Below, piece by piece: positions 40,471 through 64,000 of a stretch of DNA of 64,000 nucleotides. A program made the position numbers and the translations under genes. Position 1 is the first letter of the stretch. Each line of letters opens with the position of its first letter. The stretch covers positions 13,007 through 77,006 of the forward strand of contig CAXBYW010000004.1 in assembly GCA_963980225.1 (NCBI GenBank), in the 5' to 3' direction. The notes under the pieces were generated by a model. It was not told the origin of the DNA and ran no database searches. It saw only the letters and a program-made list of their open reading frames with translations. The DNA comes from an uncultured bacterium (lineage in GTDB: Bacteria; Patescibacteriota; Microgenomatia; UBA1400; MFAQ01).

Positions 40471-40475
40471 TAAAT

Positions 40476-42970: not shown

Positions 42971-42978
42971 ATTAGGGT

Positions 42979-43944
42979 ATGAAACAGAGGGTTTTTGTAA
43001 CACATAAATTACCAGGAAAAGAAATAGATAAATTAAAGGAAGACTTTGAGGTAGACGTTTGGTCTGATAAGGATATTGGTCGAAAAGATTTGATTGATAA
43101 GGTTAAGGGGGTAGATGGAATAATAAGTCTGTTAACCGAGAAGATTGACAAAGAAGTGATGGATGCAGCTGGAGAAAATCTGAAAGTAATTGCCAACTAT
43201 GCAGTTGGTTTTGACAATGTTGACTGTGAAGAGGCAGACAAGCGAAAAATAGTGGTAACTAATACACCGGGAGTTTTAACGGAATCAGTAGCGGAACATG
43301 CGATTGGCCTGATGTTTTCAGTGATGAAAAGAATAACGGAAGGAGATAAATTTATTAGAGAAGGGAAGTTTGCTGGTTGGGAACCGGACTTGTTGGTAGG
43401 AACAGGAGTAAGAGATAAAGTGTTGGGAGTTGTGGGGTTGGGTAGAATTGGTAGGTGGACGGTAAAATTAGCTAACAGCTTGGGGATGAAAGTAATTTAC
43501 CATTCAAGAACAAGAGACGAAGAGTATGAGGAAATGGAAGGAGTGGTTTATCATTCTTTGGAGCAACTGTTAGAGATGTCAGACGTGGTCAGTTTAAGTG
43601 TTCCTTTACATGATGATACAAAAGGTATGATAGGGAAAAAAGAGCTCAAGTTGATGAAGAGGTCAGCAGTTTTAATCAACACAGCTCGAGGTGGTGTAGT
43701 TGAGGAGAAGGATTTAATCGAAGCTTTAAAAGGGGGTGTGATTGCTGGCGCTGGCCTAGATGTATTTTGGGATGAAAGTAAGATTCCTGTTGATTTAATT
43801 AAGTTGCAAAATGTGACCTTAACTCCACATATTGCTTCAGCTACCATAGAAGCAAGACTCTCTATGGCAAAGTTGGCCGTTGATTCTGTGAGATCTGTTT
43901 TATTGGGAAGAATGCCGGAAATGGTGGTAAATATGAAAAAATGA
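42979..43944 (+). CDS. D-isomer-specific 2-hydroxyacid dehydrogenase (glycerate/hydroxypyruvate reductase-like)
   Basis: NAD-binding GVVGLGRIGRWTVKLA, and catalytic-domain motifs. Confidence 0.85.
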   Translation: MKQRVFVTHKLPGKEIDKLKEDFEVDVWSDKDIGRKDLIDKVKGVDGIISLLTEKIDKEVMDAAGENLKVIANYAVGFDNVDCEEADKRKIVVTNTPGVLTESVAEHAIGLMFSVMKRITEGDKFIREGKFAGWEPDLLVGTGVRDKVLGVVGLGRIGRWTVKLANSLGMKVIYHSRTRDEEYEEMEGVVYHSLEQLLEMSDVVSLSVPLHDDTKGMIGKKELKLMKRSAVLINTARGGVVEEKDLIEALKGGVIAGAGLDVFWDESKIPVDLIKLQNVTLTPHIASATIEARLSMAKLAVDSVRSVLLGRMPEMVVNMKK

Positions 43945-44207
43945 AAAAGGAAGAAAGTGGTAGACAGTTAAAGCTTAGTGAGCAAGACAATGAAGAGAAG
44001 GTAGTTGATAAGAAGGATAAAAAGAAAAGAAATAAACCTAAAGATAGATGGACCATATTTGTGGTTTTGTTTATAACAATACTAGTCAGTTTGGTATTTT
44101 ATTTTGTCTCCGGGATACCTAAAACACAAAAAAATGATGAAATGGAAAAAATAGAAAACATAAAAAAAAATAATGATTTCTTTGGCTCAGCTGTACATGA
44201 GCTCTAG
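43941..44207 (+). CDS. small hypothetical membrane protein (lysine-rich N-terminus, one TM)
   Basis: 88-aa ORF. One TM helix (WTIFVVLFITILVSLVFYFV). Confidence 0.35.
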   Translation: MKKEESGRQLKLSEQDNEEKVVDKKDKKKRNKPKDRWTIFVVLFITILVSLVFYFVSGIPKTQKNDEMEKIENIKKNNDFFGSAVHEL

Positions 44208-48512: not shown

Positions 48513-48540
48513 AGGAGGTATTATAGTAGAATTGGAGGTA

Positions 48541-49140
48541 ATGGGGAAAAAGTTGTTTGGTTATTATGTTTATTTGTTACTGGCCTGGGGATGTTTTCGA
48601 TATTGGGTGAGACTACCAGAGGTGATAGAAGAGCTATGGTTTAAGCCAGTTATCTGGTTGGTGCCATTATTTTGGTGGCGTATAAGCCTTAAGGGAAAAC
48701 CAAAACTGTTTAACAATAAGTGGTTTTTGAGTGGGTTTATGGGAATGGCGGTTGGTCTTTTTTACTTTAGTTTAATAAGACTTTTAACACCTGCTTCGTG
48801 GGAAGGTCTTGGTGGGGCAAATTGGAGTTTGAATTTAATTGGAATAGCATTAACAACAGCGGTAGTGGAAGAGATAACTTTTTCTGGGATGGTCTTGGGT
48901 ATTTTAGATTGGATACGAGGTAAAAAACTATTTAACTTAGTGGTGCTGGGTTTCATGGTTGTGGGAGTGCATTTGCCGATAAATATTTTTGTGTTTGGGC
49001 TACAAGGCAAGGAGCTCGTGGGTGTTTTGGTATGGCTTTTTTCTGTGGCAGTAATTAATGGATGGTTGAGGCGAAAGACAGAAAATGTTACGGGGTCTAT
49101 AATTGCTCGTTTTATTTTAATGTTGGCGGTTTTGGGATAA
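48541..49140 (+). CDS. CPBP-family (CAAX protease / Abi) intramembrane metalloprotease
   Basis: Multi-TM protein with VVEEITFSG (EExxxR/F-type motif 1). Start taken at the internal Met (MGKKLFGYY). Confidence 0.5.
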   Translation: MGKKLFGYYVYLLLAWGCFRYWVRLPEVIEELWFKPVIWLVPLFWWRISLKGKPKLFNNKWFLSGFMGMAVGLFYFSLIRLLTPASWEGLGGANWSLNLIGIALTTAVVEEITFSGMVLGILDWIRGKKLFNLVVLGFMVVGVHLPINIFVFGLQGKELVGVLVWLFSVAVINGWLRRKTENVTGSIIARFILMLAVLG

Positions 49141-49186
49141 AATTTGTGCCTGAGATTTGCTTAAATTGGGTTTTCAGTGTAGGATG

Positions 49187-50428
49187 TCAAGAGATATGGC
49201 AAAAGAAATAAGTTTAAGTGATTTAAATAAGGTTGATAAACAGATCGCAAAGAATTTTGAAGACCAAACAGTGTTTTTAGAATCCTTGGTCAAACAAAAG
49301 AGTGTCAATCCAAGCAGACAAGGGTTTGATAATGTTTCTGAGGAAGGTATGGCTAAGATAATAAGGTCAAAGCTTAGAGATATGGGTGTTGTGTCGAGAT
49401 ATTTACGCAACAAAAAAAAGAGACCAAACTTAGTTGTTTCTTGGGGACCAACGAGGTCAAGGAAGTCCTTGGCTTTAGTGGGACATATGGATACAGATGA
49501 GCCAATTAATGAAAATAAGAGTGAGTGGTTTTCGGGAGAAGTAAAGGATGGAAAGATGTATGGAACAGGAGTTTTAGACATGAAAGCATCTTTATCTGCC
49601 TATGTTTTTGCCTTGAAAGCCTTGAAGGATTTGGGGTTTGAATTAGATGGTAAATTAAAATTGGCCTTTACTGTGGATGGAAAGAGTGAGTATTTTTCTA
49701 AATTAGGATTACATTACTTAATAAATAAAGGCTTCAAAGCAAAGGTGGCTTTGCTTTCAAAACCTGGAACAAATAAAATAGCGGTTGGTCATAGGGGTGG
49801 ATACAGATTTAAGATTTCTGTAAAAGGTGAGGAAGTGGACACCGGTAGAAAGTCTTGGGAAACAGGGAAAAAAGGAAAAAACGCAATTCAAGATGTCGGA
49901 AAAATTATCTCTTGCCTTGGGGGATTTGATTTACCATTTAAGCAAGCAAGAGCATTTCCTGGTAGGGTGCCTGTATTCACTTTTCCCACTAAAATAACGG
50001 GTGGCAGAGCGGTTAATGTGGTGCCTGGCAAGTGTGAGGCTTGGGGAGACGTGAAGCTTTTACCAGGTAATACAGATAGCCAAGTTAGATGGTGGTTGGA
50101 AGGAAGATTGAGTAAGCTTTCGGGTGTGAACTGGAGTTTGGAAGACATACTTTATGTTCCGGCTATGGAGGTAGACAAAACTGACAGGTGGGTTAAGTTG
50201 TTGCATGAACAAGCTGAGAAGGTTTTGGGTAAGTCGCCAAAATTGGAAGGGTGTGGTCCTTGGAATGATGCCTGGATGTTGACCCAGACAGATACTCCTT
50301 GTTTGGCTGGTTTTGGACCTGATGGTCAAATTGATGAAGGTCAGGGAGAGTGGGTAGACCTTGCTAGTTTGAAACAAGTGACGCAAATAATTACTCGATG
50401 GATATTGGTGTATTTGGGAAAAAAATAG
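49187..50428 (+). CDS. M20-family metallopeptidase (ArgE/DapE-like)
   Basis: LVGHMDTD metal-binding motif, GTGVLDMKASL, dimerisation-domain spacing. Confidence 0.7.
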   Translation, partial: SRDMAKEISLSDLNKVDKQIAKNFEDQTVFLESLVKQKSVNPSRQGFDNVSEEGMAKIIRSKLRDMGVVSRYLRNKKKRPNLVVSWGPTRSRKSLALVGHMDTDEPINENKSEWFSGEVKDGKMYGTGVLDMKASLSAYVFALKALKDLGFELDGKLKLAFTVDGKSEYFSKLGLHYLINKGFKAKVALLSKPGTNKIAVGHRGGYRFKISVKGEEVDTGRKSWETGKKGKNAIQDVGKIISCLGGFDLPFKQARAFPGRVPVFTFPTKITGGRAVNVVPGKCEAWGDVKLLPGNTDSQVRWWLEGRLSKLSGVNWSLEDILYVPAMEVDKTDRWVKLLHEQAEKVLGKSPKLEGCGPWNDAWMLTQTDTPCLAGFGPDGQIDEGQGEWVDLASLKQVTQIITRWILVYLGKK

Positions 50429-50547
50429 ATTTTTGATATTAGAAGAAGATTCTGCGGTGATTAGCCTTGGTGATATATTTTGATTAGTTAAGAGAGAGTT
50501 GTAATACTAGGAGTAGTGTTTTAAGGTATCTGTTACCACTAAATATA

Positions 50548-51000
50548 GTGATTATGAATTGTCCTTATTGTAACCACAACGATACACAAGTTTTAGAAAG
50601 CAGATTACTGTTTGAAGGGCTTGGTGTACGTCGAAGGAGAGAGTGTAAAAAATGTACAAAAAGGTTCACGACCCATGAACTAGTGGTCAATTTAGAACTA
50701 AAGGTAGTTAAGAAAAATGGTAGTGTGGAAGATTACAAACGAGAAAAGTTGGCGAAAGGAGTAAGGAAGGCGTGTTGGAAGAGAGAAGTGTTGGAGGAGA
50801 AAATGGAGGAGTTGTTGGATGATATTGAACTAAAGCTTTTAAATAGAAGGACAATCCAGATTAAGTCTACAGATATTGGCAAGATGGTATTGGCAAGATT
50901 AAAAAAATTAGATGATGTAGCCTATTTAAGATTTGCTAGTGTGTATATGGATTTTGAAAAGGCTAGTGATTTTAGTAAGGTTTTAGATAACTTGAAATGA
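50548..51000 (+). CDS. nrdR: transcriptional repressor NrdR
   Basis: N-terminal zinc ribbon CPYC..(x)..CKKC followed by an ATP-cone. Directly upstream of the RNR gene. Confidence 0.85.
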   Translation: MIMNCPYCNHNDTQVLESRLLFEGLGVRRRRECKKCTKRFTTHELVVNLELKVVKKNGSVEDYKREKLAKGVRKACWKREVLEEKMEELLDDIELKLLNRRTIQIKSTDIGKMVLARLKKLDDVAYLRFASVYMDFEKASDFSKVLDNLK

Positions 51001-53435
51001 GTAATACGATATATAGACAATCTAACCAAAATGATAGTTTCGAAGAAAGAATGAATAAGGTGAGTAAGGTGGCAGGTAAGAGACCTGAGCTGCCCGGTGA
51101 TTTGCCTACAGGGTCGTGGTCAGAACAAGCATTAAGGGTGTTAAATGAAAGATATTTAAATAAAGATGACTCTGGTAAGGTGATTGAAACAGCAGATGAG
51201 ATGGTGTGGAGAGTTGCTTTTGCTGTTGCTGGAGCAGAGTCGTTGTGGGATGAAGACAGACAGAGTGTTTTTGAGCAAGCAAAAAGATTTTATCGATTAA
51301 TGGCAGGAGGTAAGTTTTTACCAAACTCTCCTACTTTAATGAATGCCGGCAAAGGTAATGGTCTGCAATACTCAGCTTGTTTCGTGCTGCCAGTTGAAGA
51401 CTCTTTAGAGGGCATTTTTGATGCTATTAAGTATCAAGCTATTATTCATCAATCTGGTGGAGGAACAGGTTTTTCTTTTACGAAATTAAGACCAAAAGGT
51501 TCGATAGTGAAAAGAAGTAAGGGGGTTGCTTCAGGGCCTGTTAGTTTTATGAGGGTGTTTAATGAAGCAACTCAACAGATAAAACAAGGAGGGACAAGAA
51601 GAGGGGCAAACATGGGGATCTTGCAAGTGGATCATCCTGACGTTAGAGAATTTATTACCTGCAAGATTGATGGAGGGATTACCAACTTTAATATTTCCGT
51701 GGCAGTAACTGATGAGTTTATGAGGGCAGTTAAAGAAGGCGGAGATTATGACTTGAAGTCTCCACATAATGGAGAAGTAGTGGGATCGGAAAATGCAAAA
51801 GAGATTTTTGATTTAATTGCTGAGACTGCTTGGGAGACTGGTGATCCAGGAATCATCTTTATAGATAAAGTTAACAATAGTACGGCAAATCCAGTACCTA
51901 GTAAGGGTCCAATACAAAGCACTAACCCTTGTGGGGAACAACCTCTCTATCCTTTTGATGCTTGCAATTTAGGTAGTATATTTTTAGACAAGTTTGTTAA
52001 GAGAGAAAAAGGACAGAAGCCAGAAGTGAATTGGGAGGAATTGAAAATGGCAGCTAGGGAGGCGGTTAGATTTTTAGATGACGTAATTGAGATAAATCCA
52101 TATCCCCTGGAACAAATTAATGATATGGTGCGTTCAGTAAGGCGGATTGGTTTGGGGATTGGTGGTTGGGGAGACATGCTTTACTTATTGGAAATCCCTT
52201 ATGATTCTGAGGAGTCACTTGATTTGGCCAGAAAAATAATGAGAACAATTAAAGTAGAAGGACACAAAGCTAGTAGAGAGCTAGCAAAAAAAAGAGGTTC
52301 GTTTAAGTTGTGGGATGAAAGTATCTTTTCTAAAGGAGAACCAATGAGGAATGCTACGGTAACAACAATTGCTCCGACAGGGAGTATCGGTATTTTAGCT
52401 TCTACAAGTGGAGGTTGTGAGCCAGTATTTGCTTTGTCTTACAAACACATGGTGAAAGATGAAAGTTTGGACAGAGAACTCTTTTTTACTGATCCTGCTT
52501 TTGAAAAGGTGGCGCGTGATGAAGGATTTTGGAGTGAGTCTTTGGCTAAAAAAGTGGCGGAAACCGGTAGTGTAGAAGGTTTGTCGGAGATACCAGAAAA
52601 ATGGCAAAGAATTTTGACTACTTCCCATCAAATTACGCCAGAGTGGCATGTAAAGATGCAGGCAGCCTGGCAAGAAGATACAGATAATGCTGTTAGTAAG
52701 ACAGTTAATTTGCCTAATGACGCTAGTGTAAAGGATGTGGCTGATGTTTATATGCAAAGTTTTGAGCTTGGTTGCATGGGGGTCACTGTTTATAGAGATG
52801 GGAGTAAGGATTGGCAAGTGTTGAATGTTGGTAAAGAAGGAAAACATGAACCTAAGGTAGAGTTAGGGGTGTTGGGTGAAGGTGAGGTGGCAGAGCTACA
52901 GTTGCGACCTGAAAAATTAACAGGAAGCACTTATAAAATTAAGACTCCGATAGGGACAGCTTTTGTAGTAATTAACTCTGATGAATTAGGAAACCCATTT
53001 GAGGTCTTTATTAATGTCGGCAAAGCCGGAACTCATGTTATGGCTGACGCAGAAGCCATTGGTAGATTACTGTCTACAGCCTTGAGGATACCCTCTGTTT
53101 TGTCAGCTAGAGCAGTAGCAGAAGCAGCGATTGAACAGTTAGCAGGTATTGGTGGTTCGGAAAGTGTTGGTTTTGGGAATGGTAAAGTAAGAAGCTTGGC
53201 TGATGGGGTCGCTAAGGTTTTGAAGCGTCATTTGGGTGAGAAGGAAGAAAAACTACTTAATGGTCATTCAGAAATAAAAGATTTAGAGTTATTGGACGGG
53301 GCAGGGTCAGCGAAGCAAGAGCAGTTGATATTAATGGCAAAGAAAGCAGACTTGTGTTCTGATTGTGGACAGGCTAGTTTGGTGTTGGAGGAGGGTTGTG
53401 CTAAGTGTTATTCTTGTGGTGCAAGTAAGTGCTAA
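50997..53435 (+). CDS. nrdJ: adenosylcobalamin-dependent (class II) ribonucleotide reductase
   Basis: 812 aa. Active-site NPCGEQPL. C-terminal Cys-rich tail CSDCGQ..CAKCYSCGASKC. Confidence 0.85.
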   Translation: MSNTIYRQSNQNDSFEERMNKVSKVAGKRPELPGDLPTGSWSEQALRVLNERYLNKDDSGKVIETADEMVWRVAFAVAGAESLWDEDRQSVFEQAKRFYRLMAGGKFLPNSPTLMNAGKGNGLQYSACFVLPVEDSLEGIFDAIKYQAIIHQSGGGTGFSFTKLRPKGSIVKRSKGVASGPVSFMRVFNEATQQIKQGGTRRGANMGILQVDHPDVREFITCKIDGGITNFNISVAVTDEFMRAVKEGGDYDLKSPHNGEVVGSENAKEIFDLIAETAWETGDPGIIFIDKVNNSTANPVPSKGPIQSTNPCGEQPLYPFDACNLGSIFLDKFVKREKGQKPEVNWEELKMAAREAVRFLDDVIEINPYPLEQINDMVRSVRRIGLGIGGWGDMLYLLEIPYDSEESLDLARKIMRTIKVEGHKASRELAKKRGSFKLWDESIFSKGEPMRNATVTTIAPTGSIGILASTSGGCEPVFALSYKHMVKDESLDRELFFTDPAFEKVARDEGFWSESLAKKVAETGSVEGLSEIPEKWQRILTTSHQITPEWHVKMQAAWQEDTDNAVSKTVNLPNDASVKDVADVYMQSFELGCMGVTVYRDGSKDWQVLNVGKEGKHEPKVELGVLGEGEVAELQLRPEKLTGSTYKIKTPIGTAFVVINSDELGNPFEVFINVGKAGTHVMADAEAIGRLLSTALRIPSVLSARAVAEAAIEQLAGIGGSESVGFGNGKVRSLADGVAKVLKRHLGEKEEKLLNGHSEIKDLELLDGAGSAKQEQLILMAKKADLCSDCGQASLVLEEGCAKCYSCGASKC

Positions 53436-53551
53436 ATATTGGCAATTAAGGGTTTGTAGTGATAGTTTGGGGGTTAGCGGTGTTTTTTGTTGATATATGG
53501 TGTAAATGTTGTGTTTTGTTTGGTAGAAATTTGGTCATTTTTTTATGAGTA

Positions 53552-53941
53552 ATGAGGCAGTGGTGGAAGACGTGTTATAGTTTATCTATGGCTACAATTA
53601 AGGAAGTTGAACCAAGATCAATATCGGTGGATGAAGAGGCACTAAAAGAAGTAGAAGGATATGTGGAAAGAGTAGAGAAGCAAATGGAGATTAAGAAGCC
53701 GTCTAATCCATTACAACCTTCTTCAGTAAAAACTCCTGCACCTAAAGTTCAAGATGATTTTGGTAATGTGGTAATGCAGGCAGCTCAGAAACAAGTTAAG
53801 GCAAAAATTATATTACCAATGGATGAAATAGAGGTAAAAGAAGGTTTGCATCATAAGATAATAGATGCTGCTAGATGGTTGGCAGAATGGTGTGTGTTAA
53901 TGATTAAAAAATATCCAGGTAGAGTGTTTTATAAACGATGA
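53552..53941 (+). CDS. hypothetical protein
   Basis: 129-aa ORF (likely starts at the internal MATIKEV) immediately upstream of, and overlapping, the T4SS-like ATPase gene. Confidence 0.35.
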   Translation: MRQWWKTCYSLSMATIKEVEPRSISVDEEALKEVEGYVERVEKQMEIKKPSNPLQPSSVKTPAPKVQDDFGNVVMQAAQKQVKAKIILPMDEIEVKEGLHHKIIDAARWLAEWCVLMIKKYPGRVFYKR

Positions 53942-56259
53942 TTGATCTAGCTAACATGGTGCAGTATGTTTTTGGAGTGGTTTTGGGGTTGTCATTGTTT
54001 TTGACGGTATTTATTGGCTTAGGGATAATATTGTTGCAGTGGCTTAGGTTCAAGAACAGAGAAGAGGTTAGTCTTAATTTTGTTTTACTAGAGTTGGCTG
54101 TACCAAGAGATAATGAGATTAAGATAGATGCGGCAGAACAGATGTTTGCGGCTCTTTCTTCTATTAAGAAGGGTGGCTTTTGGCAAAAATTTAAAGCTCA
54201 ACAGCATTTGTCTTTTGAGATAGTGGGCAAGAAAGAAGATATAAGATTCTATGTTTCATGTCATAGGGATAACATGGAACTTATTGATAAGCAGTTGGCT
54301 GGCGCTTATCCTGGTATTCAAGTGAAGGAAGTAGATGAGTACAATATTTTTGATGAACAAGGTAAGGTCGCTTTTACGGAGTTGGTTTTAAAAAATGAGT
54401 CTTTTAAGCCAATAAAGAGTTATAGAGAACTACCAGTTGACTCCTTATCTCAAATTACTTCTTCTTTAGCTAAGTTTGGAGATGATGAGGGGGCAGTGAT
54501 ACAGATGATTATTAGTCCAGCTGATCCTGCTTGGAGCAAGTCAGGAAGTGGTTTCTTGTCTAAAACAAAAAAAGATGAGGCTGATCCTGAGAAGGCAAGC
54601 TTCAAGATGAGTCCACAAGACATGGAAGCTATTGATCAAAAAGTTGGTAAGCCAGGTTTTTTGGCTAGTGTGAGGATTGTGTGTGTGGCGCCAAGTGAAG
54701 GTCAAGCAAAAAGTAACTTAAGTAACTTAAAAGGTGTTTTTGCTCAGTATTCAAGTGATTTGAATAATTTTTCTAGCAAGAAAATTAGATTTAAAAAAGG
54801 TTTCATGGTGGATTTTGTTTATAGATACCAATCGTTATTTGGTAATAATTCTGTTTTATCTAGTGATGAGTTGGCAACGATGTGGCATATGCCAAACAAT
54901 ACGATACAGACACCACATATTCACTGGTTAAATGCTAAGAGTGCACCAGCATCTGGTGGTTTCCCGTCCACTGGTCTCTGGTTGGGTAGATCAATTTACC
55001 GAGGTCAGACAAGAAATATATTTATGAGTGAGGCGGATAGGATGAGGCACATGTACATTATTGGACGAACCGGTACAGGAAAAACAGAGCTTTTAAAGCA
55101 GATGATTATTCAGGACATGAGGGCTGGTAATGGTTTGTGTTTTCTAGAACCACATGGTGATGGAATAGAAGAACTTTTGGAGATGGTGCCACCAGAACGA
55201 GCAGAGGATGTAATTGTGTTTGACCCAGCTGATGAAGAGAGACCAATCGGATTTAATCCGATGTCGGTTAAGAATATCGATGAGATTTATCAAGTGGCGA
55301 GTTCGATAATTAATCTGATGTACAAGCTTTATGATCCTAATAAGACGGGGATGGTTGGTCCTAGGTTTGAACATTCAGTCAGAAACATAATGTTAACGGT
55401 GGCGGTAGAAAAGGGTGCTGGTTTTGTAGAAATTGTGAGAGCTTTAACAGATAGTAAGTATGTTCAAGAGCTTCTACCAAAAGTAAAAGATCCGGTGGTA
55501 AAAAGGTACTGGACGGATCAAATCGCTCAGACAAGTGATTTTCATAAGAGTGAGGTCTTAGACTACATTACTTCTAAGTTTGGTAGGTTTGTTACAAATA
55601 GAATGATAAGAAATATTATTGGCCAAAGTGAGACGACATTGGACTTTAGAAAGGCCATGGACGAGGGGAAGATTGTGTTTTTGAAATTAGCTAAGGGTTT
55701 GATCGGTGAAGAAGACTCTAACTTTTTAGGATTAGTTTTGGCGCCGAAAATTTTACAAGCAGCTTTGTCTAGGCAAGACACGCCTAGGGAGCAAAGGAGA
55801 CCGTTTTACTTTTATGTTGATGAGTTTCAAAACTTTGCTACACCAGACTTCGCTCAAATGCTATCTGAAGCCAGAAAATATAACTTGGGGCTTATACTAG
55901 CTAATCAGTTTGTTAGTCAGGTGGATGAGCAAGTGCGAGATGCTATTTTTGGTAACGTGGGTACCTTGATGAGCTATCGGGTTGGAGTACAAGATGCAAG
56001 TATTCTAGCTAAGTCTTTTGCCCCAACGTTTAACGAAGGGGATTTGTCGAACATTGGAGCTCAAAATCTTTATGTAAAAACCATTGTTGATGGTACACCG
56101 GTGCCACCTTTTAGTATGAATGTGTGGAGAGACCTAGAAAAAGAGAGAGGACATGGTAGTGCAAAGGTGGCAACATTAGTTAAAGAACTGTCTTCTTTAA
56201 AGTATGGTAGGGATAGGGCAGAAGTTGAGGAGGAGATTTTGAGAAGATCTAAGCTGTAA
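53938..56259 (+). CDS. VirB4/VirD4-like type IV secretion system ATPase (FtsK/HerA-TraG superfamily P-loop NTPase)
   Basis: 773 aa. N-terminal TM hairpin, Walker A IIGRTGTGKTE near residue 375, Walker B FYFYVDEFQNF (DEF as in TraG/VirD4-type coupling proteins). The roughly 300-aa N-terminal domain is VirB4-like. Confidence 0.6.
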   Translation: MIDLANMVQYVFGVVLGLSLFLTVFIGLGIILLQWLRFKNREEVSLNFVLLELAVPRDNEIKIDAAEQMFAALSSIKKGGFWQKFKAQQHLSFEIVGKKEDIRFYVSCHRDNMELIDKQLAGAYPGIQVKEVDEYNIFDEQGKVAFTELVLKNESFKPIKSYRELPVDSLSQITSSLAKFGDDEGAVIQMIISPADPAWSKSGSGFLSKTKKDEADPEKASFKMSPQDMEAIDQKVGKPGFLASVRIVCVAPSEGQAKSNLSNLKGVFAQYSSDLNNFSSKKIRFKKGFMVDFVYRYQSLFGNNSVLSSDELATMWHMPNNTIQTPHIHWLNAKSAPASGGFPSTGLWLGRSIYRGQTRNIFMSEADRMRHMYIIGRTGTGKTELLKQMIIQDMRAGNGLCFLEPHGDGIEELLEMVPPERAEDVIVFDPADEERPIGFNPMSVKNIDEIYQVASSIINLMYKLYDPNKTGMVGPRFEHSVRNIMLTVAVEKGAGFVEIVRALTDSKYVQELLPKVKDPVVKRYWTDQIAQTSDFHKSEVLDYITSKFGRFVTNRMIRNIIGQSETTLDFRKAMDEGKIVFLKLAKGLIGEEDSNFLGLVLAPKILQAALSRQDTPREQRRPFYFYVDEFQNFATPDFAQMLSEARKYNLGLILANQFVSQVDEQVRDAIFGNVGTLMSYRVGVQDASILAKSFAPTFNEGDLSNIGAQNLYVKTIVDGTPVPPFSMNVWRDLEKERGHGSAKVATLVKELSSLKYGRDRAEVEEEILRRSKL

Positions 56260-56334
56260 AATTACCTGTAATTGACAAACCTATAGTAGTGCGGTATAAT
56301 AGGGTTAGTTCATTTACAATCCATTTTATTCCCT

Positions 56335-56895
56335 TTGGAGGTTTTTGTGAGAAAAAAAAGCGTTTTGTTTTCCTTTAAAATAAGCGAGTCTTATATGAAA
56401 GATTTAATTAAGCGTTTCGGGATAGGGTACGAATCATTACCGAACGGAGAAATAGGTAAATTATCACAAGGTGAGGTGTTTTGGCCACAATCTGAGCTAA
56501 AAACATCTTTAGGGGATATTTATGACAACTTACTACTTGTTGGCTTGAATGTGACTTCTGTGAAAATTACGAAATTAGTGAAGCAGAAGGGTGTTTCTTT
56601 CAAGGTGGCGGTTGTTCTGTCAAATACAGTAAGTTCTCAGCACCGAAAGGTGACAGATGTTGAATGGGAGCTGTTGTCAGAATTATTTAAAGACAATTTG
56701 TGGTATGCAATAGGATATCTTAACGAAGATACCAACCCATTATATGGCGAATCCAGACAACTGGTCTCCTTTAGTATGGTTGGAAGGAGACCTAAAGCTG
56801 AACATAAAGAGAGACAGAGAGTTGTTACCCTTGAAGGTACGGGGGATCCGGAATTGGTTTTTTCGGAATTCATCAAGTTATATCCAGGTGGATAG
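56335..56895 (+). CDS. hypothetical protein
   Basis: 186-aa ORF downstream of the ATPase. Upstream GGAGG is followed by GTG at about 56347, which may be the real start. No motif. Confidence 0.4.
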   Translation: MEVFVRKKSVLFSFKISESYMKDLIKRFGIGYESLPNGEIGKLSQGEVFWPQSELKTSLGDIYDNLLLVGLNVTSVKITKLVKQKGVSFKVAVVLSNTVSSQHRKVTDVEWELLSELFKDNLWYAIGYLNEDTNPLYGESRQLVSFSMVGRRPKAEHKERQRVVTLEGTGDPELVFSEFIKLYPGG

Positions 56896-57002
56896 TGGAT
56901 AGAAATAGTTTTAAACTTAAGACTCTGGCATTATGCTAGAGTCTTTTTTGTACAAATAGACAGGCATGAGATGTAGGAGTAAGTTATAATACTGTGGTAC
57001 AT

Positions 57003-57079
57003 GGGCCGGTAGCTCAGTTGGTCAGAGCGCGAAGCTTATACCTTCGTGGTCGCTGGTTCGAGTCCAGCTCGGCCCACCA
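57003..57079 (+). tRNA. tRNA-Ile(UAU)
   Basis: GGGCCGG-TA-GCTC..GAGC-G-CGAAG-CTTATAC-CTTCG-TGGTC-GCTGGTTCGAGTCCAGC-TCGGCCC-A-CCA. Anticodon loop CUUAUAC gives anticodon UAU. Confidence 0.8.
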
Positions 57080-57477
57080 TGAAATTAGATACAGAGAAAT
57101 TAGGTGTATTAGTAGATGAAATATTGAAGTTTAATGACCATCGTGGGTGGAGTCCTGTGGCAGAAGATTTAGCTAAGTCTGTAGTGTTAGAAAGTAGTGA
57201 ATTAATGGAACACTTTCAGTGGGATGCAAGTAGTGTTACCAGAGACTCTAAACTTCCAGAGAAAGATTTGGAAGAAATAGGGTTTGAAGTTGCAGATGTA
57301 TTTTGGTATTTAGTTCTTTTTTGTGAAGAAATGGATATAGATTTAGTTGAGGCTTTGGAAGAAAAACTAAAACACAATGACAAAAAATTTCCAGCAGAAC
57401 AATTTGGTGGTGAACATGATGAAAAATTTTATAGAGAACAAAAGAAAGCATATCGGGAAAAGAAGGGAGTCAAATAA
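57079..57477 (+). CDS. MazG-like nucleotide pyrophosphohydrolase
   Basis: 133 aa from the ATG overlapping the tRNA 3' end. MazG_2-type EExGE..E..AD pattern (LEEIGFEVADVFWYLVLFCEEM). Confidence 0.55.
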   Translation: MKLDTEKLGVLVDEILKFNDHRGWSPVAEDLAKSVVLESSELMEHFQWDASSVTRDSKLPEKDLEEIGFEVADVFWYLVLFCEEMDIDLVEALEEKLKHNDKKFPAEQFGGEHDEKFYREQKKAYREKKGVK

Positions 57478-57845
57478 TGAAAAAAATAAAGGACAGAGAA
57501 GAAAAAAAGGGGAGAGATAGACTTCTTTTGAAGTTTGATTCTCCGTTAATGGATGAGATGGGTGTGGAAGAAGATGTTGAGTCTAAAGATATTGTTATTT
57601 CTGGAAATTTAGGTATAGGAAATAAAGGTAATCCAGTGACTATTGTTGTAGAGGATGAGGTAACAGGGGAGAGTTTGGAGATGAGTCATGTAGAGTCTGC
57701 CTTTGTAGTGGTGGAGGATAAGAGGAAAAGTTCTTCTGGCTGGTTGGCAATAGCTGTCGGAGAGGTTAAGAAGTTAAACCAGGTACTAGGATTTTTAGCA
57801 GGGACGACCTTAGATGGATTAAAGAAAATGATTAGAAAGAATTAG
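57477..57845 (+). CDS. hypothetical protein
   Basis: 122-aa acidic ORF, start overlapping the upstream stop. Confidence 0.35.
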   Translation: MKKIKDREEKKGRDRLLLKFDSPLMDEMGVEEDVESKDIVISGNLGIGNKGNPVTIVVEDEVTGESLEMSHVESAFVVVEDKRKSSSGWLAIAVGEVKKLNQVLGFLAGTTLDGLKKMIRKN

Positions 57846-57848
57846 TTT

Positions 57849-58724
57849 TTAAAGCTCAGAAAGCTTAGGTTTCTCTTTTGACGGTTTGTTGGGAATGAAT
57901 TCTAGGTATTTTTCTGTAGTAGAAAGGCGTTTGTGACCAACAAGTTTAGAGATGTATACGAGTGGACTGCCAGATGACAACTGGTGAGCGATGAAGGTGT
58001 GGCGTAAGTCATTTACCTTTACATTGTCTATACCAGCTAGTTTGAAGTATCTGTCTAGGCTTGAACGGATATTTCTGATTAGGAAAGACTTGCCTGTTTT
58101 AGTAATAAAGATGTTTTGGGTCTCTGATTTTGGACGATCTTTTAGGTATTTCTCTAAGGCTTCTTTTGAAACTTGATTAAAAGGGATAGATCGTTCTGGA
58201 TGAGAATCATGAGCTATGATGGTGGCCTTATTTTCGTTTAGGTCTATATCGTTTATTCTTAGGTTAGCTAGTTCTGAGATTCTGATACCAGTTTGAAGAA
58301 GAATTTCTACGATAGCGAAAATTCGAGAATCATCTTTACAAGCATCCCTTAAGGCCCTGTATTCTAGTTTAGAGAGGATTCTTGGAGGCTTGACCTCATA
58401 TTTGGGGTGGGTGACTGCTTGAGCAGGGTTAGCTTTAATGGTTCCTTGTGACTGAAGGAAACTAAAAAATGACTTAATGGAGTTTATTTTTCTAGAAATT
58501 GATTTGGCTGTATAGTCTTTCTTGTCTAAGTGGTCCTTAAATGCATCAATATCTTCTGCCTTGACTTCATTAGTTGAAGTCTTGCTTAAGCTTTCTTTTA
58601 GAAAATTGCTTAACTGTTCTATGTCTTTGGTATAAGCTAAAATAGTAGCATTAGCCCTCCCAAGCGTGGCAAGGTGGGTTTTAAAATTACTGATTGATGT
58701 TGCAAAATTGTTGCTTGACTCCAT
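57849..58724 (-). CDS. tyrosine site-specific recombinase (XerC/XerD / phage-integrase family)
   Basis: N-terminal core-binding domain. Catalytic R..HxxR..Y region (LRHTFIAHQLSSGSPLVYISKLVGHKRLSTTEKYL). Confidence 0.8.
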   Translation of the reverse strand: MESSNNFATSISNFKTHLATLGRANATILAYTKDIEQLSNFLKESLSKTSTNEVKAEDIDAFKDHLDKKDYTAKSISRKINSIKSFFSFLQSQGTIKANPAQAVTHPKYEVKPPRILSKLEYRALRDACKDDSRIFAIVEILLQTGIRISELANLRINDIDLNENKATIIAHDSHPERSIPFNQVSKEALEKYLKDRPKSETQNIFITKTGKSFLIRNIRSSLDRYFKLAGIDNVKVNDLRHTFIAHQLSSGSPLVYISKLVGHKRLSTTEKYLEFIPNKPSKEKPKLSEL

Positions 58725-58791
58725 AATTAATTACTTCTACGTATTTATTAATGATAAAAGATTACTACAGGCTATATTTTACTAGGCTTTA

Positions 58792-59166
58792 TTGTATATG
58801 TCAAGGTTGAAAAAAAGCGGTTTTTTAGATAAATTGATGTTTCTAGTAGGCTTGTTATTGTTATGGTCTTTGGTGCGTGGTTTTTCAGAGTTTAAGGGAG
58901 CTTATAGGCGAGTTGAAGAGGCCAAAGAAGTGCTTGATTTTGAGGACATCAAAAATCAGCAGTTAAAAGAAAAGTTGGAAGAAGTGCAAAAAGATGATTA
59001 TATTGAGAAAGTGGTTAGAAATGAGTTAAATATGCAAAAAGAAGGAGAAGTTGTGGTGGTTTTATCAGATGATCCGACTAAAGTTGACGTATTTGGGCAA
59101 GAAAATAAGCTAGAAATAGAAGAAAATAAGCAAAATTGGAAGAAATGGCTTGATTTGATTCGTTAA
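58792..59166 (+). CDS. FtsB/DivIC-like septum formation initiator
   Basis: N-terminal TM, coiled coil, and conserved C-terminal IEKVVRNELNMQKEGEVVV. Confidence 0.6.
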   Translation: MYMSRLKKSGFLDKLMFLVGLLLLWSLVRGFSEFKGAYRRVEEAKEVLDFEDIKNQQLKEKLEEVQKDDYIEKVVRNELNMQKEGEVVVVLSDDPTKVDVFGQENKLEIEENKQNWKKWLDLIR

Positions 59167-59323
59167 TTTGGTTGCGGGCCCGGGGTTACGCTCCCCAGTT
59201 AAGTGAGATTATGAGCCTCACGAGATACTTACCTCCCGCCCGCACGTTAGGTAGGGGAATTATATCATTTTATGTGGCTAGTTGGCAGGAATGGCTGTGG
59301 CTAGTGTAGAATAGTGGGTACCT

Positions 59324-59398
59324 GGCAGGGTAGCTCAGCTGGTTAGTAGCGCCGTCTTCATAAGGCGGAGGTCGAGGGTTCGAGTCCCTCCCCTGCTA
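59324..59398 (+). tRNA. tRNA-Met(CAU) (elongator type; could alternatively be lysidine-modified Ile2)
   Basis: GGCAGGG../..CCCTGCT-A. Anticodon stem CCGTC/GGCGG with loop TTCATAA (CAT). No initiator features (1-72 paired, no 3 G-C in the anticodon stem). Confidence 0.75.
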
Positions 59399-59429
59399 CA
59401 CTAGGTGTTGATTATTAATATAAGAAATT

Positions 59430-60446
59430 ATGATAAATAGAGTTTTGTCTGGTATTACTCCAAGCGGATCTAAGTTACATATAGGTAATTTTTTTGGTGC
59501 GGTCAAGCCACAAATAGAGTTGCAAGAGAAAATTGGTGAAACATTTTATTTTATGGCTGACCTTCATGCCCTAACTACTGTTCAAAGTAAGAAAGTGTTA
59601 GAGGAAAATATTGAGGCGGTGATTTTGGATTATTTGGCCTTAGGCCTTAATCCTGAAAAGAGCGTGTTTTTTAGGCAATCAGATATTGCGGCCCATTCTC
59701 AGTTGGCGGTGGTTTTGGCTAATTATGTATCTTTCGGTCAGATGAAACGTATGCATGCGTTTAAGGACAAGTTGCAAAAAGGAGTGAGTCAAGAGTCGGT
59801 AAATATGGGTTTATTTAACTATCCTATTTTAATGGCGGCTGATATTCTTCTATATAAACCTGATGGAGTGCCCGTGGGTGAGGATCAGAGACAGCATATT
59901 GAGATAACTAGAGATATGGCTGACAAATTTAACAAGGTTTATGAGAAGGAGGTATTTCCTTTACCAGAACCTTTAATATCTAAAAGTGTAGGAAGAATAA
60001 TGGGAACAGACGGAGAACGGAAAATGAGTAAGAGTTTGGGTAATGTAATTGGTATTTTTGAAGAAGATGAGATTATTAAAAAACAGATAATGAGTTGTTT
60101 TACGGATCCTAACAGGAAGAAAGCGACGGATCCTGGAAAAGTAGAAGGTAATCCAGTATTTATTTTTCACGATTTACTTAATGATGATAAAAAAGAAGTG
60201 GAAGACTTGAAGGATAGATATAAGAAGGGTAAGGTGGGGGATGTAGAGGTAAAGGAAAGGTTGTTTGAGGCACATAAGCGCACGTTTGAGACGGCAAAAA
60301 AGAAAAGGAAAGAACTGGAAGGCGATTTAGAATTGGTGAAAGGTATTTTAAGTAAGGGAGCAAAAAAAGCAAAATTGGTGGCGGATAAAACAATGGAAGA
60401 GGTTTATGAGCTGATTGGGATTAAGAACAAGTTGAGTGGGGTATAA
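59430..60446 (+). CDS. trpS: tryptophanyl-tRNA synthetase
   Basis: Class I HIGH variant (SGITPSGSKLHIGNFFGA) and KMSKS. About 338 aa, typical of TrpS. Confidence 0.85.
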   Translation: MINRVLSGITPSGSKLHIGNFFGAVKPQIELQEKIGETFYFMADLHALTTVQSKKVLEENIEAVILDYLALGLNPEKSVFFRQSDIAAHSQLAVVLANYVSFGQMKRMHAFKDKLQKGVSQESVNMGLFNYPILMAADILLYKPDGVPVGEDQRQHIEITRDMADKFNKVYEKEVFPLPEPLISKSVGRIMGTDGERKMSKSLGNVIGIFEEDEIIKKQIMSCFTDPNRKKATDPGKVEGNPVFIFHDLLNDDKKEVEDLKDRYKKGKVGDVEVKERLFEAHKRTFETAKKKRKELEGDLELVKGILSKGAKKAKLVADKTMEEVYELIGIKNKLSGV

Positions 60447-62345
60447 TTGGAGCTCATGGCCACAAAGAAAAAACAAGTAAAAAGATTTGAGATAAAGCTT
60501 AATCCTAAGCGTTTATTAATATGGTTTTTAATTATCTTTTTGTTTTTACCTTCCCTTTTAGGTTTTTTGGGTGAAGAGACTGGGGTAATAGAGAATATTG
60601 CCTTATCAGAAGCAGTTAAGGAGATAAAAGATGAAAAGGTTGAGAAGGTAGAGATTAGAGGTGATGAGCTGGTTCTTTTTTATCCGGAAGTAGATGGTGT
60701 TCCTCATTTAAAATTGGCTAGAAAAGAAGAGGGTTCTGGTTTTGTTGAGATCTTACAGGGAGCTGGAATTGATGAAAATAACGTAAAGGTAGAAGTAGCA
60801 TCACAAACCTTATCCAAAGCTTTTTGGGGGATGGTGTCTTTGGTGGCACCAATATTAGGATTTGGCGTGCTACTTTATTTTATGTCCAAGAGGCAGATGG
60901 GTGGCAGTGGTGCTGGGGGGATGTTTGGTATGGGGAAGAGTGGGGCTAAGTTGTTTGTTAAGGGTAAGCAGTCTGAGAGGTTTAGTAATGTGGCTGGAGT
61001 TGATGAAGCTAAAAAAGAGTTAGAAGAAGTTGTGGATTTTTTGAAGAACCCTAAAAAATATAAAGCAGTCGGAGCTAGAACTCCTAAGGGAGTTTTGTTA
61101 ATTGGCCCAAGTGGTGTCGGAAAAACATTGTTGGCGCGTGCAGTAGCAGGAGAAGCGGGAGTACCATTTCTTTCTATGGCAGGGTCAGAGTTTATGGAAA
61201 TGTTGGTAGGTGTTGGTGCAAGCAGGGTCAGAGACCTCTTTGCTACAGCTAAAAAAATGGCTCCGGCAATTATTTTTATAGACGAGATTGATGCTATTGG
61301 TAGAGCTAGGGGTGTGGGAACTATGGGAGGACATGATGAAAGAGAGCAAACATTGAACCAAATATTAGTAGAGATGGATGGTTTTACGGCTAATGATAAC
61401 GTGATTGTAATTGCAGCTACTAACAGGCCAGATGTTTTGGACTCTGCCTTGGTTAGGCCAGGAAGGTTTGATAGAAGAGTAAGTTTAGATTTACCCGACA
61501 TTGCTGATAGAAAAGAGATAATAAAAATTCATGCTAGAGGCAAGCCGTTTATAAAGAGGTTGAAGTGGTCGATGGTGGCAGAAATGACTGTTGGCTTTTC
61601 TGGGGCCGATTTGGAAAACATGCTTAATGAGGCAGCTATTTTGGCAGCTAGAGAAGATAGAAAAGAAATTCTTATGAAGGATATTCGAGAAGCGGCAACT
61701 AAGGTGAAGCTTGGTCCAGAGAAGAAACGTCTGCAAAGTAAAAGAGAAAGAGAGATGACAGCTTATCATGAAGCTGGACATGCAGTTGTAGGCCACATGT
61801 TACCAGGAGCAGACCCCATCCACACTGTGAGTATTGTCTCTAGAGAGTTGTCTTTGGGACATACTGAAAGTAGACCAAGTAGGGATAGATATCAGTACAC
61901 GATGTCGGAGTTAAAGGATAGGATGGCGGTAATGATGGGAGGAAGAGCGGCTGAAAAAATTATTTACAATGAGTTGTCTGGTGGTGCAGCTAGTGATATT
62001 GATGGAGCTACAAAACTAGCCAGAAAAATGGTGGTAGATTTAGGAATGAGTAAGTTGGGGCCATTAGCTTTGGGAGCTAGCTGGGAGTCAGCAGGTGCCA
62101 TGGGAAGAGGCTTCATGAGGCAGGTGGAGGTGTCTGACAGAATGCAATCTAAGGTGGATGATGAGATAAAACTTTTTATAGATGAGGCTTATGGGCGAGC
62201 AGAAGAGGTATTGAAGAAAAACAGAGCGGTAATGAAAAAATTAGTTAATAAGTTGTTAAAAGTAGAGACGATTGAAGTGGATGGGTTTTTGAAAATAATG
62301 GGTACTAAAAAAACAACTTATGATAAAAAAATTAGTATTAGTTGA
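60447..62345 (+). CDS. ftsH: ATP-dependent zinc metalloprotease FtsH
   Basis: N-terminal TM, AAA Walker A GPSGVGKT, SRH, zinc site HEAGHAVV. Confidence 0.9.
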   Translation: MELMATKKKQVKRFEIKLNPKRLLIWFLIIFLFLPSLLGFLGEETGVIENIALSEAVKEIKDEKVEKVEIRGDELVLFYPEVDGVPHLKLARKEEGSGFVEILQGAGIDENNVKVEVASQTLSKAFWGMVSLVAPILGFGVLLYFMSKRQMGGSGAGGMFGMGKSGAKLFVKGKQSERFSNVAGVDEAKKELEEVVDFLKNPKKYKAVGARTPKGVLLIGPSGVGKTLLARAVAGEAGVPFLSMAGSEFMEMLVGVGASRVRDLFATAKKMAPAIIFIDEIDAIGRARGVGTMGGHDEREQTLNQILVEMDGFTANDNVIVIAATNRPDVLDSALVRPGRFDRRVSLDLPDIADRKEIIKIHARGKPFIKRLKWSMVAEMTVGFSGADLENMLNEAAILAAREDRKEILMKDIREAATKVKLGPEKKRLQSKREREMTAYHEAGHAVVGHMLPGADPIHTVSIVSRELSLGHTESRPSRDRYQYTMSELKDRMAVMMGGRAAEKIIYNELSGGAASDIDGATKLARKMVVDLGMSKLGPLALGASWESAGAMGRGFMRQVEVSDRMQSKVDDEIKLFIDEAYGRAEEVLKKNRAVMKKLVNKLLKVETIEVDGFLKIMGTKKTTYDKKISIS

Positions 62346-63246
62346 CGGCAACTCTTTGATCCATAGGGCCTATCATGGGTATCCTGGCTTGAGAACAGGT
62401 GATGGGGAACTGGTGAATGCGGTGTTTGGTTTCTCGTCGATGCTTTTAAAAGTTTTGGAACAACTTCAACCAACTCATGTGGCGATTGCTTGGGATGTTA
62501 AAGGTAAGACCTTCAGACATAAAATGGATAAAGAGTATAAGGCGGGAAGAGCTAAGACAGATCAAGAACTGATTGATCAAATAGATAGAACTAAAGAGGT
62601 GGTAATGAGTTTGAACATTCCACAGTTTGGTGTAACTGGATATGAAGCAGATGATATTATTGGAACTCTGGCACAACAAGCTTTTGAGACAAAAAATATG
62701 GGAGAAAAAGAGGTAATAATCGTGACGGGGGACAGAGATGCCTTACAGTTGGTAAGGGGTAAAAAAATAAAGGTGTATATGCCCACAAGAAGTAAAAAAC
62801 AAGGAAATGGTTCTCAGATGTTTGATGAAGAAGCAGTTAAGATTAAGTATGGACTTTCTCCAAAACAGTTAATTGATTTAAAAGGCTTGATGGGAGACAG
62901 TTCAGATAATATTAAAGGGGTAATGGGGATTGGACAAGTGACAGGAACAAAATTACTTGAAGAAGCTGGTGATTTAGATGGGGTGTATAAAAATCTTGAT
63001 AAACTAAATGTAAGTGACAGAGTTAAAAGTTTACTTAGAAAAGAAAAAGAAACTGCCTTTGTTAGTAAGGCCTTGGGGACGATAGAGTGTGAGATGCCAA
63101 TTGATTTAGAGTGGGATAGATGTGAGTTGAATGATTATGATAGAAGTAAGGTGGAGAAATTATTTAAAGAACTAGGGTTTAAGAGCTTGCTTGCTAGATT
63201 ACCACAAGATAAATGGGAAAAAGAAGCAGAAGGAGTGTTTGTATGA
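62320..63246 (+). CDS. 5'-3' exonuclease (Pol I N-terminal / FEN-like domain protein)
   Basis: LVLVDGNSLIHRAYHG N-terminus and FEN-family acidic clusters (GYEADDIIGTLA, VTGDRDALQLV). Confidence 0.8.
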   Translation: MIKKLVLVDGNSLIHRAYHGYPGLRTGDGELVNAVFGFSSMLLKVLEQLQPTHVAIAWDVKGKTFRHKMDKEYKAGRAKTDQELIDQIDRTKEVVMSLNIPQFGVTGYEADDIIGTLAQQAFETKNMGEKEVIIVTGDRDALQLVRGKKIKVYMPTRSKKQGNGSQMFDEEAVKIKYGLSPKQLIDLKGLMGDSSDNIKGVMGIGQVTGTKLLEEAGDLDGVYKNLDKLNVSDRVKSLLRKEKETAFVSKALGTIECEMPIDLEWDRCELNDYDRSKVEKLFKELGFKSLLARLPQDKWEKEAEGVFV

Positions 63247-64000
63247 AGATCGCTTTAGTACATGACTATATAAAGGAGTTTGGAGGAGCAGAGAGGGTAT
63301 TGCGGACACTTTCGGATATGTATCCTAAGGCTCCAATTTACACAGCTTTTAGGGTGAAAGGATCTGAAGGAGATAAGGCTTTTGAAAACAGAGAAGTAAG
63401 AGAGAGTTTTTTGGCTCCTTTATTGAAGGTCTGGAAGCTTTATAGCCCCTTAAGGTTTTTAGCACCCTTGGTTTGGAGGAGTATGGACCTATCTGAATTT
63501 GATTTAGTAATTACTAGCTCCAGTTGGTATATTACTCGTGGTTTTAGGGTGGGTAAGAATACTAAGGTTGTTTGTTACTGTCACACTCCACCTAAATATT
63601 TATATGGATATGAAACGAGTATTAATTTGCAAAAATACTGGCCGGTGAAGATTTATGCTTGGGTGGTGAATCATTTTTTGCGGCTTTATGACTTATGGTC
63701 TGTGGATACGGTTGATAAGTGGGTAGTTAACTCTTTAAATGTTCAAAATAGAGTGAAGAAGTTTTATAAAAAAGATTCAATGGTTATTTATCCACCAATA
63801 GAAGTGGGAAAATTTATTGATGCAAGCAAGGATGTGGGAAAAAAAGACTATTTCTTAATTGTTTCCCGATTGGTAGGAAGTAAGGGTTTGCAGGAAGCTG
63901 CAATGGCAGCAAAAAAGGAAGGTTTTAAGTTAAAAATATCTGGTAGCAAGGCGGGCCTATCTGGAGTAGCTGGAAATCTAGAGAAATTGGGTGGAGAGAT
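63243..64000 (+). CDS. GT4-family glycosyltransferase (N-terminal part; runs off the window end)
   Basis: MKIALVHDYIKEFGGAERVL N-terminus typical of GT4/GT1. ORF still open at position 64000. Confidence 0.7.
   Translation, partial: MKIALVHDYIKEFGGAERVLRTLSDMYPKAPIYTAFRVKGSEGDKAFENREVRESFLAPLLKVWKLYSPLRFLAPLVWRSMDLSEFDLVITSSSWYITRGFRVGKNTKVVCYCHTPPKYLYGYETSINLQKYWPVKIYAWVVNHFLRLYDLWSVDTVDKWVVNSLNVQNRVKKFYKKDSMVIYPPIEVGKFIDASKDVGKKDYFLIVSRLVGSKGLQEAAMAAKKEGFKLKISGSKAGLSGVAGNLEKLGGE

Follow-up and report, generated by a model that had tools for sequence, protein, structure and literature searches.

The tRNA-Ile(UAU) locus of a Collierbacteria-like Microgenomates genome: gene order, AUA decoding and genes abutting tRNA 3' ends

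Gene content and conservation of the locus

We analyzed a 64-kb stretch of DNA from an uncultured bacterium (contig CAXBYW010000004.1; hereafter the window), and in particular a tRNA-Ile gene with the anticodon UAU together with the genes that adjoin it. The tRNA gene (57003..57079, plus strand) is followed by a 132-residue MazG-like (DCTPP1-like) nucleoside triphosphate (NTP) pyrophosphohydrolase gene (57079..57477, plus), a gene for a conserved protein of 122 amino acids (57477..57845, plus) and an Xer-like tyrosine recombinase gene (57849..58724, minus). Beyond these lie the septum-formation gene for FtsB/DivIC (58798..59166, plus), two tRNA genes with the anticodon CAU (59169..59244, minus, and 59324..59399, plus) and the gene for tryptophanyl-tRNA synthetase, TrpS (59430..60446, plus). 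The tRNA-Ile(UAU), the MazG-like open reading frame (ORF), the small ORF, the recombinase and the CAU tRNA at 59324..59399 were all present where the original prediction had placed them, the tRNAs being confirmed by ARAGORN and Rfam. The recombinase, which had been described as divergently oriented, is instead convergent with the unit of tRNA, MazG-like gene and small ORF, with the ORF ends including stops 3 nt apart, and is divergent only from ftsB. Taking the locus as a whole, we consider it likely that this is a core chromosomal segment in which an AUA-reading tRNA heads a transcription unit, a MazG-like gene was inserted at the junction directly behind that tRNA and is expressed as a leaderless mRNA cut from the tRNA transcript, and the neighboring recombinase is a vertically inherited Xer-like protein.

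Relatives of the locus were collected by scanning one genome per GTDB species, which gave 80 loci encoding relatives of the recombinase with 53-89% identity. Eight neighboring proteins were placed in these loci by tblastn, and the loci were also scanned for tRNAs, so that the DNA covered comprises the window and about 20 kb from each of the 80 relatives. All 80 loci belong to the Microgenomates group of the Patescibacteria. Among those carrying candidate phyla radiation (CPR) names, most are labelled Collierbacteria and the remainder Woesebacteria, Beckwithbacteria and Gottesmanbacteria. The identical recombinase protein is, in addition, encoded on more than 20 metagenome contigs, of which one has a length of 303 kb.

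About 40 Collierbacteria-like species genomes share the order FtsH, TrpS, tRNA-Met(CAU), FtsB, recombinase, 122-residue protein gene, tRNA-Ile(UAU) and TraG/DUF8128-like gene, and more distant Microgenomates retain parts of it. The GC skew is between +0.16 and +0.58 in each 2-kb interval of 1..64000 with no change of sign, which matches the one-directional excess of G over C published for the order UBA1400, namely Collierbacteria, Beckwithbacteria and Ch65 (PMC7143001). The segment is conserved core chromosome of Collierbacteria-like Microgenomates and not a mobile element.

The tRNA-Ile(UAU) gene and the decoding of AUA

ARAGORN assigned 57003..57079 to a tRNA-Ile with the anticodon TAT, and the Rfam tRNA model matched 57003..57076 with 69.6 bits. 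The discriminator base is A (57076), the CCA end is encoded (57077..57079), and the anticodon loop reads CTTATAC. A -10 box, TATAAT (56985..56990, plus), lies 12 nt 5' of the tRNA start as the putative promoter of the tRNA-led unit, and about 48 of 56 loci have a TAnAAT hexamer 9-13 nt before the start of their orthologous tRNA. The tRNA gene is kept beside the recombinase in 57 loci, where the 57 genes represent 47 distinct sequences. When 29 distinct orthologues were aligned, compensatory changes were present in 17 of the 21 pairs while the loop CTTATA was invariant. These alignments indicate a genuine covarying tRNA that is conserved across the class at a fixed chromosomal locus.

The codon that such a tRNA would read is common, since AUA accounts for 21.4 per 1000 codons in the window and for 34% of the isoleucine codons; TGA is a stop codon. 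In codon-level alignments with orthologues, the ATA codons of the window faced ATT or ATC in 42%, ATA in 10% and ATG in 4% of cases. The alignment profile of ATT and ATC codons was the same as that of ATA, whereas ATG codons faced ATG in 46%. Considering that ATA aligns like ATT and ATC and not like ATG, AUA means isoleucine here. The tRNA itself bears A73, the isoleucine-type pairs C4:G69 and C5:G68, U12:A23 and A37, but has A29:U41 and C38. Nureki et al. reportedly defined in 1994 the isoleucine identity set of E. coli as A73, C4:G69, U12:A23, C29:G41, A37 and A38, a set that may not transfer to CPR bacteria. The proposal that AUA is decoded in a nonstandard way through a UAU tRNA is thus supported by the tRNA being real and kept in 57 loci and by the abundance and alignment of AUA as an isoleucine codon, as far as comparison of sequences can tell.

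It had also been proposed that the CAU tRNA at 59324 might constitute a second, Ile2 system. The CAU tRNAs near the recombinase fall into two classes, an elongator-Met class (G1, A4:U69 and G5:C68) and an initiator class. The tRNA at 59324..59399, which was detected by both ARAGORN and Rfam and has a positional orthologue in most relatives, falls in the elongator-Met class by its A4:U69 and G5:C68 pairs, so that part of the proposal was not borne out. The D-stem of this tRNA is one base longer in its 3' strand (GTAGC vs GAGC in the orthologues). The tRNA also has a G1:U72 pair, and it scores 58 bits with Rfam.

The CAU tRNA on the minus strand at 59169..59244 escaped both ARAGORN and the Rfam tRNA model; it has orthologues in about 36 loci, and 14 of its 24 pairs covary. 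In its initiator-like acceptor stem, UGCGGG, positions 1 and 72 are nonetheless paired, as U1:A72 or, in Beckwithbacteria-like loci, as A1:U72, the D-stem has 5 bp with a D-loop of 4 nt, and the T-loop is non-canonical (AGCGUAA/GGCGGAA). We regard it as an atypical, initiator-like tRNA. The GC-rich region 59165..59300 was also considered as a structured RNA of the plus strand, and this candidate was rejected: it folded no better than shuffled sequences and had no Rfam match, and the region really holds the minus-strand tRNA. As the two CAU tRNAs are of the elongator and the initiator class, neither is Ile2-like, and all three tRNAs of the AUN box appear to be clustered at this locus.

The best explanation of these results is that tRNA-Ile(UAU) would serve as the reader of the frequent AUA isoleucine codon in this lineage, having its own promoter and heading a small transcription unit. 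Alternatively, the UAU tRNA could be an auxiliary, redundant reader of AUA, with tilS and a lysidine-modified tRNA-Ile2(CAU) encoded elsewhere in the genome. TilS was found in about 98% of surveyed bacteria, and the lysidine system is described as near-universal and evolutionarily stable (PMC6063277). Both systems can coexist, as in Lactobacillus casei and Cyanothece, where a UAU tRNA occurs alongside tilS and lysidine-modified tRNA-Ile2(CAU) (PMC3575796). That our scan for TilS and Ile2 spans only the window and the sampled 20 kb per relative also favors redundancy and weighs against our explanation.

Within the DNA covered, however, the CAU tRNAs were of the elongator and initiator classes only. 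No ORF with an SGGxDS PP-loop motif was present in the window, and the 80 loci, the ftsH neighborhood included, contained just one, which is MnmA-like and not TilS-like. In Firmicutes, tilS lies near ftsH. Adaptation to U34 would be marked by Arg or Lys at the position of E. coli Trp905 of isoleucyl-tRNA synthetase, or by a eukaryote-type enzyme, but neither the window nor the 80 loci contain a gene for this synthetase. In the literature searched, we found no paper linking lysidine or tilS with CPR or Patescibacteria, and the supplementary data published with the Ch65 genome carry no annotation of either. One would expect a redundant tRNA to be distributed patchily, so the steady conservation of the UAU tRNA at one locus across Microgenomates families, with an invariant anticodon loop and in the presence of frequent AUA codons, argues against an auxiliary role, which we consider rather unlikely.

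Isoleucine tRNAs with the anticodon UAU have been treated as rare (PMC3575796, PMC4013482), and 19 species with a UAU tRNA-Ile2 are listed in tRNADB-CE (PMC4013482). The clade-wide UAU tRNA described here adds members to this already known rare kind and is, as such, modestly interesting. If the UAU tRNA is indeed the AUA reader, a CPR class with this tRNA at a fixed locus and heavy use of AUA would form the largest group known to employ this alternative to TilS.

The MazG-like gene and the tRNA/ORF junctions

The protein encoded directly behind tRNA-Ile(UAU) matched Pfam family PF12643 with 38.4 bits (cut-off 27) and, in phmmer, the pyrophosphatase structure 4qgp with an E-value of 1e-14. Its metal-binding residues, E38xxE41...E70xxD73, align with those of 4qgp and of DCTPP1 (dCTP pyrophosphatase 1). 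By tblastn, none of the 80 GTDB loci matched the gene, and a word-indexed search of 5.8 billion proteins retrieved only five MazG-like relatives. Two of them (78% and 73% identical) are located at the same junction in the related metagenome contigs L093 and L091, and two further, more distant ones are found in unrelated contexts. With regard to a phage origin, there was no close relative in IMG/VR and just a family-level match to PHROG pyrophosphatases.

In the close relatives L095 and L097, which do not have the MazG-like gene, the identical or near-identical tRNA is followed by ...GGCCCACC-ATG-AAA-AAA, the start of the gene for the 122-residue protein. Because the tRNA junctions without MazG read straight into that gene, the MazG-like ORF (57079..57476) sits exactly between CC and ATGAAA; the insert has ATGAAA at both ends and contains no non-coding DNA. 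This 398-nt ORF is all that varies among relatives at the tRNA/recombinase junction, the recombinase and the 122-residue protein gene being constant. The comparison points to the MazG-like gene as the only recent, lineage-specific insertion in the otherwise conserved order. A ratio of nonsynonymous to synonymous substitution rates (dN/dS) of 0.06-0.14, together with conservation of the N-terminus starting at the junction ATG, indicates a working gene under purifying selection.

The ATG of the MazG-like gene shares the last A (57079) of the encoded CCA, so that tRNA and ORF overlap by 1 base and there is zero intergenic space between them. At the other end, the stop codon of the gene overlaps the ATG of the 122-residue protein gene. 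A longer, 143-residue version starting from GTG at 57046 was rejected, since its first 11 residues (VAGSSPARPT) are the T-arm and acceptor stem of the tRNA read in frame and recur as a prefix where the unrelated 122-residue protein gene is called in relatives that lack MazG. This calls for care in CPR gene calling, as callers extend ORFs into the tRNA and thereby give the prefix 'MVAGSSPARPT'.

The 122-residue protein belongs to a conserved family of 65 clusters restricted to Collierbacteria-like genomes, and its gene is the ancestral one directly 3' of the tRNA. The protein had no match in Pfam, NCBIfam or PHROG. Its AlphaFold2 (AF2) model was poor (predicted local distance difference test, pLDDT, 60), and a Foldseek search of this model against the PDB returned nothing below E = 1.

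The close spacing is found at other junctions as well. In Collierbacteria, about 26 of 40 loci have the ATG of the 122-residue protein gene 2-6 nt past the tRNA discriminator, and the gap is 2 nt in all three lineages with MazG, the window included. Likewise, the start of trpS lies 2 nt past the tRNA-Met discriminator in seven species (L013, L014, L026, L034, L039, L040 and L044), and the same abutment was seen at tRNA-Trp (L067 and L078) and tRNA-Ser (L058 and L083) junctions. Altogether, start codons are placed 1-6 nt past the discriminator at about 40 junctions in the relatives, and the gap is never zero. As the genes concerned are unrelated, the abutment is general in these genomes and not specific to one locus. 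Position 74 was C in all 167 tRNA genes from the window and the loci L011-L094, while the full CCA was encoded in only 30 of them. The encoded C74 suggests a 3'-processing or CCA-repair system that would rely on this base.

At the junction itself there is no TAnAAT-like hexamer 5-9 nt 5' of the ATG and no space for a promoter or a Shine-Dalgarno sequence, whereas a GGAG-like motif appears where a spacer exists between tRNA and ORF. In the window as a whole, 29 of 70 ORFs are preceded by a -10 hexamer (TAnAAT) at a distance of 5-9 nt from the ATG, compared with 3.2% of all ATGs; examples are at 1156, 2605, 10541, 41954, 48512 and 60456. Leaderless transcription therefore appears to be widespread, possibly affecting about 40% of the genes in the window. 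A census of Shine-Dalgarno sequences was uninterpretable because the G-rich coding strand generates similar words within genes.

From the lack of room for a promoter or Shine-Dalgarno sequence together with the leaderless signatures, we infer co-transcription and a cut at the tRNA 3' end. In this scheme, tRNA-Ile(UAU) and the two ORFs would be transcribed together from the tRNA promoter. The tRNA would be cut endonucleolytically at its 3' end, after position 73-75 and in an RNase Z-like manner, freeing an mRNA that begins at or a few nucleotides from the AUG. This mRNA would be translated as a leaderless message. The ancestral state would be the 122-residue protein gene starting 1-6 nt past the discriminator. 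The MazG-like gene, being inserted exactly at the junction of the tRNA and this gene in the present species and two related lineages, would have taken over the same tRNA-abutting arrangement. As such, the MazG-like gene is probably expressed by being cut from the tRNA transcript.

Several points weigh against this scheme. The tRNA gene here encodes CCA, and an encoded CCA inhibits RNase Z in B. subtilis and E. coli. A cut that leaves the CCA intact would remove the A of the AUG, so that a single transcript may not give rise to both a mature tRNA and a mature mRNA. Finally, the window yielded no RNase Z gene, the only candidate being a beta-CASP metallo-beta-lactamase RNase-like ORF (26984..28324).

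The awkwardness of a clean split between tRNA and mRNA where the encoded CCA overlaps the ATG would be avoided if abutting ORFs were translated from an unprocessed tRNA-mRNA, or from a promoter inside the tRNA gene, with 3' cleavage playing no part. Many genes in this genome have no Shine-Dalgarno sequence, and the codons after the ATG are A-rich (ATGAAA...), a feature that favors initiation independent of Shine-Dalgarno sequences. The missing TAnAAT-like hexamer upstream of the junction ATG speaks against an internal promoter, however, and an AUG set against a folded acceptor stem would presumably be poorly accessible to the ribosome. Moreover, starts that are never less than 1 nt from the discriminator, together with the invariant C74, fit a fixed cut site and not random packing. 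We judge translation without cleavage to be unlikely.

Combining cleavage at tRNA 3' ends with the reading of AUA leads to a broader proposal, in which tRNA genes would act as punctuation anchored at C74 that yields leaderless mRNAs for the 122-residue protein, the MazG-like protein, TrpS and others, and AUA would be read across the class by the UAU tRNA without TilS. We put this joint proposal forward tentatively, as possible but on balance doubtful. If true, it would provide a bacterial counterpart of mitochondrial tRNA punctuation and a clade-level loss of the near-universal lysidine system. The abutting starts and leaderless signatures point to tRNA processing as a way in which bacteria can generate mRNA 5' ends fit for translation, which is relevant to expression in extremely compact genomes.

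The Xer-like recombinase and comparison with known systems

The recombinase has two domains and scored about equally against XerC, XerD and XerA, with about 170 bits, which is below all NCBIfam equivalog cut-offs (220-335). Among solved structures, the best matches were XerA (5hxy and 4a8e) and XerD (1a0p), with E-values of 1e-23 to 1e-21. While R148, E151, R241, H264 and Y273 are invariant in the 80 orthologues, every one of these has Pro in place of the hairpin Lys (SHPER, residues about 178-182) and Asn in place of the His of HxLRH (Asn238), so that the canonical R-K-H-R-H/W-Y catalytic signature is not present. No dif-like site was recognised nearby. A dif site in the spacer between ftsB and the recombinase gene was considered and rejected, as the conserved element of that spacer is a promoter: the promoter-like site of the recombinase in the window is TTGACA-17-TAAAAT (58776..58804, minus), and the orthologous intergenic regions retain TTGCAT-17-TATAAT. 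Considering the non-canonical active site and the lack of a recognised dif, we named the protein Xer-like. Its presumed part in dimer resolution is taken from homology and genomic context, and the absence of two canonical catalytic residues weighs against it.

The original prediction had noted a resemblance to an integrase-at-tRNA module, with a chromosomal Xer as the alternative. Such a module would be an island of the MazG-like gene and the small ORF that the neighboring recombinase had placed in the tRNA-Ile 3' end. It is true that the recombinase lies 770 bp from the tRNA 3' end and matches PHROG integrase families, that the MazG-like gene is a true insertion at this 3' end, and that the interval between the TraG-like gene and the tRNA also holds a lineage-specific ORF. 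The recombinase and the 122-residue protein gene are nevertheless syntenic in about 40 species genomes with or without MazG, the former is 53-89% identical across the class (80 Microgenomates genomes), and the insert is a single ORF without flanking non-coding DNA. GC content and skew are uniform with no compositional break in the window, and close viral relatives were not found in IMG/VR. No second copy of the 32-nt tRNA 3' end was present in the window with up to 3 mismatches, and a search of 40-64 kb for direct repeats likewise gave nothing. With the recombinase syntenic with ftsB, trpS and ftsH in the Collierbacteria species genomes and no att repeat, the module is highly improbable, and the gene for the recombinase belongs to the chromosome and is inherited vertically. 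The alternative of a chromosomal Xer agrees with this synteny and vertical inheritance, and the sequences identify the convergent recombinase as the lineage's Xer-like protein beside ftsB. A tyrosine recombinase beside a tRNA should not be read as an island before synteny has been checked.

The seamless insertion at the tRNA/ORF junction, the wider abutment of ORFs on tRNA 3' ends, the C74 encoded throughout, the atypical initiator tRNA and the variant active site of the recombinase were all unexpected. Some further features were observed in the window. On the 5' side of tRNA-Ile(UAU), the ORF 56335..56895 (plus) is lineage-specific, with no relative in the 80 GTDB loci, and represents a second small insertion. 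A perfect TTGACA-17-TATAAT promoter precedes this ORF and a terminator-like hairpin follows it (region 56272..56945); the hairpin (56919..56945, plus), a 12-pair stem and then TTTTTGT, ends the ORF. Behind a tmRNA (7945..8352, plus; 160 bits), whose tag peptide ends in ...APAYLFA, lies a cluster of genes for tRNA-Ser/Arg (8379..10500) in which the interleaved ORFs start 22-40 nt past each tRNA. A group I catalytic intron is located at 14278..14495 (plus; Rfam RF00028, 83 bits).

In comparison with known systems, the MazG-like protein shares the ExxE...ExxD motif and a size of about 130 amino acids with the all-alpha NTP pyrophosphohydrolases of the MazG-like/DCTPP1 (RS21-C6) group (PF12643; PDB 4qgp, 2a3q and 6sqw). 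Unlike these, it is predicted to be expressed from a tRNA junction. The recombinase shares its two-domain architecture and vertical inheritance beside a cell-division gene with the chromosomal Xer proteins (XerC/XerD, archaeal XerA, XerH and XerS), and differs from them in its Pro and Asn active-site variants and in scores below the equivalog cut-offs.

As for the tRNA, in Mycoplasma mobile and other bacteria lacking tilS, too, AUA is read as isoleucine by a tRNA whose UAU anticodon is encoded in the genome (Taniguchi et al. 2013, PMC3575796). The present tRNA resembles the Mycoplasma mobile type of tRNA-Ile2(UAU) in its isoleucine-type acceptor stem (C4:G69 and C5:G68), U12:A23 and A73. It differs in that it is conserved at the level of a CPR class, at one syntenic locus, and in genomes where AUA is a common codon.

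For the proposed expression of the abutting genes, we found no description of such tRNA punctuation in bacteria in the literature searched, and the closest parallel is the tRNA punctuation of mitochondria (Ojala, Montoya and Attardi 1981). There, too, coding sequence begins directly at the tRNA 3' end without promoter or leader. The translation system handles 5'-terminal AUGs in mitochondria and, judging by leaderless signatures in the sequence, would do so here as well. Unlike in mitochondria, the arrangement is on a bacterial chromosome, where every tRNA is served by a separate promoter and meets an ORF on its 3' side only, by way of a cleavage that is predicted.

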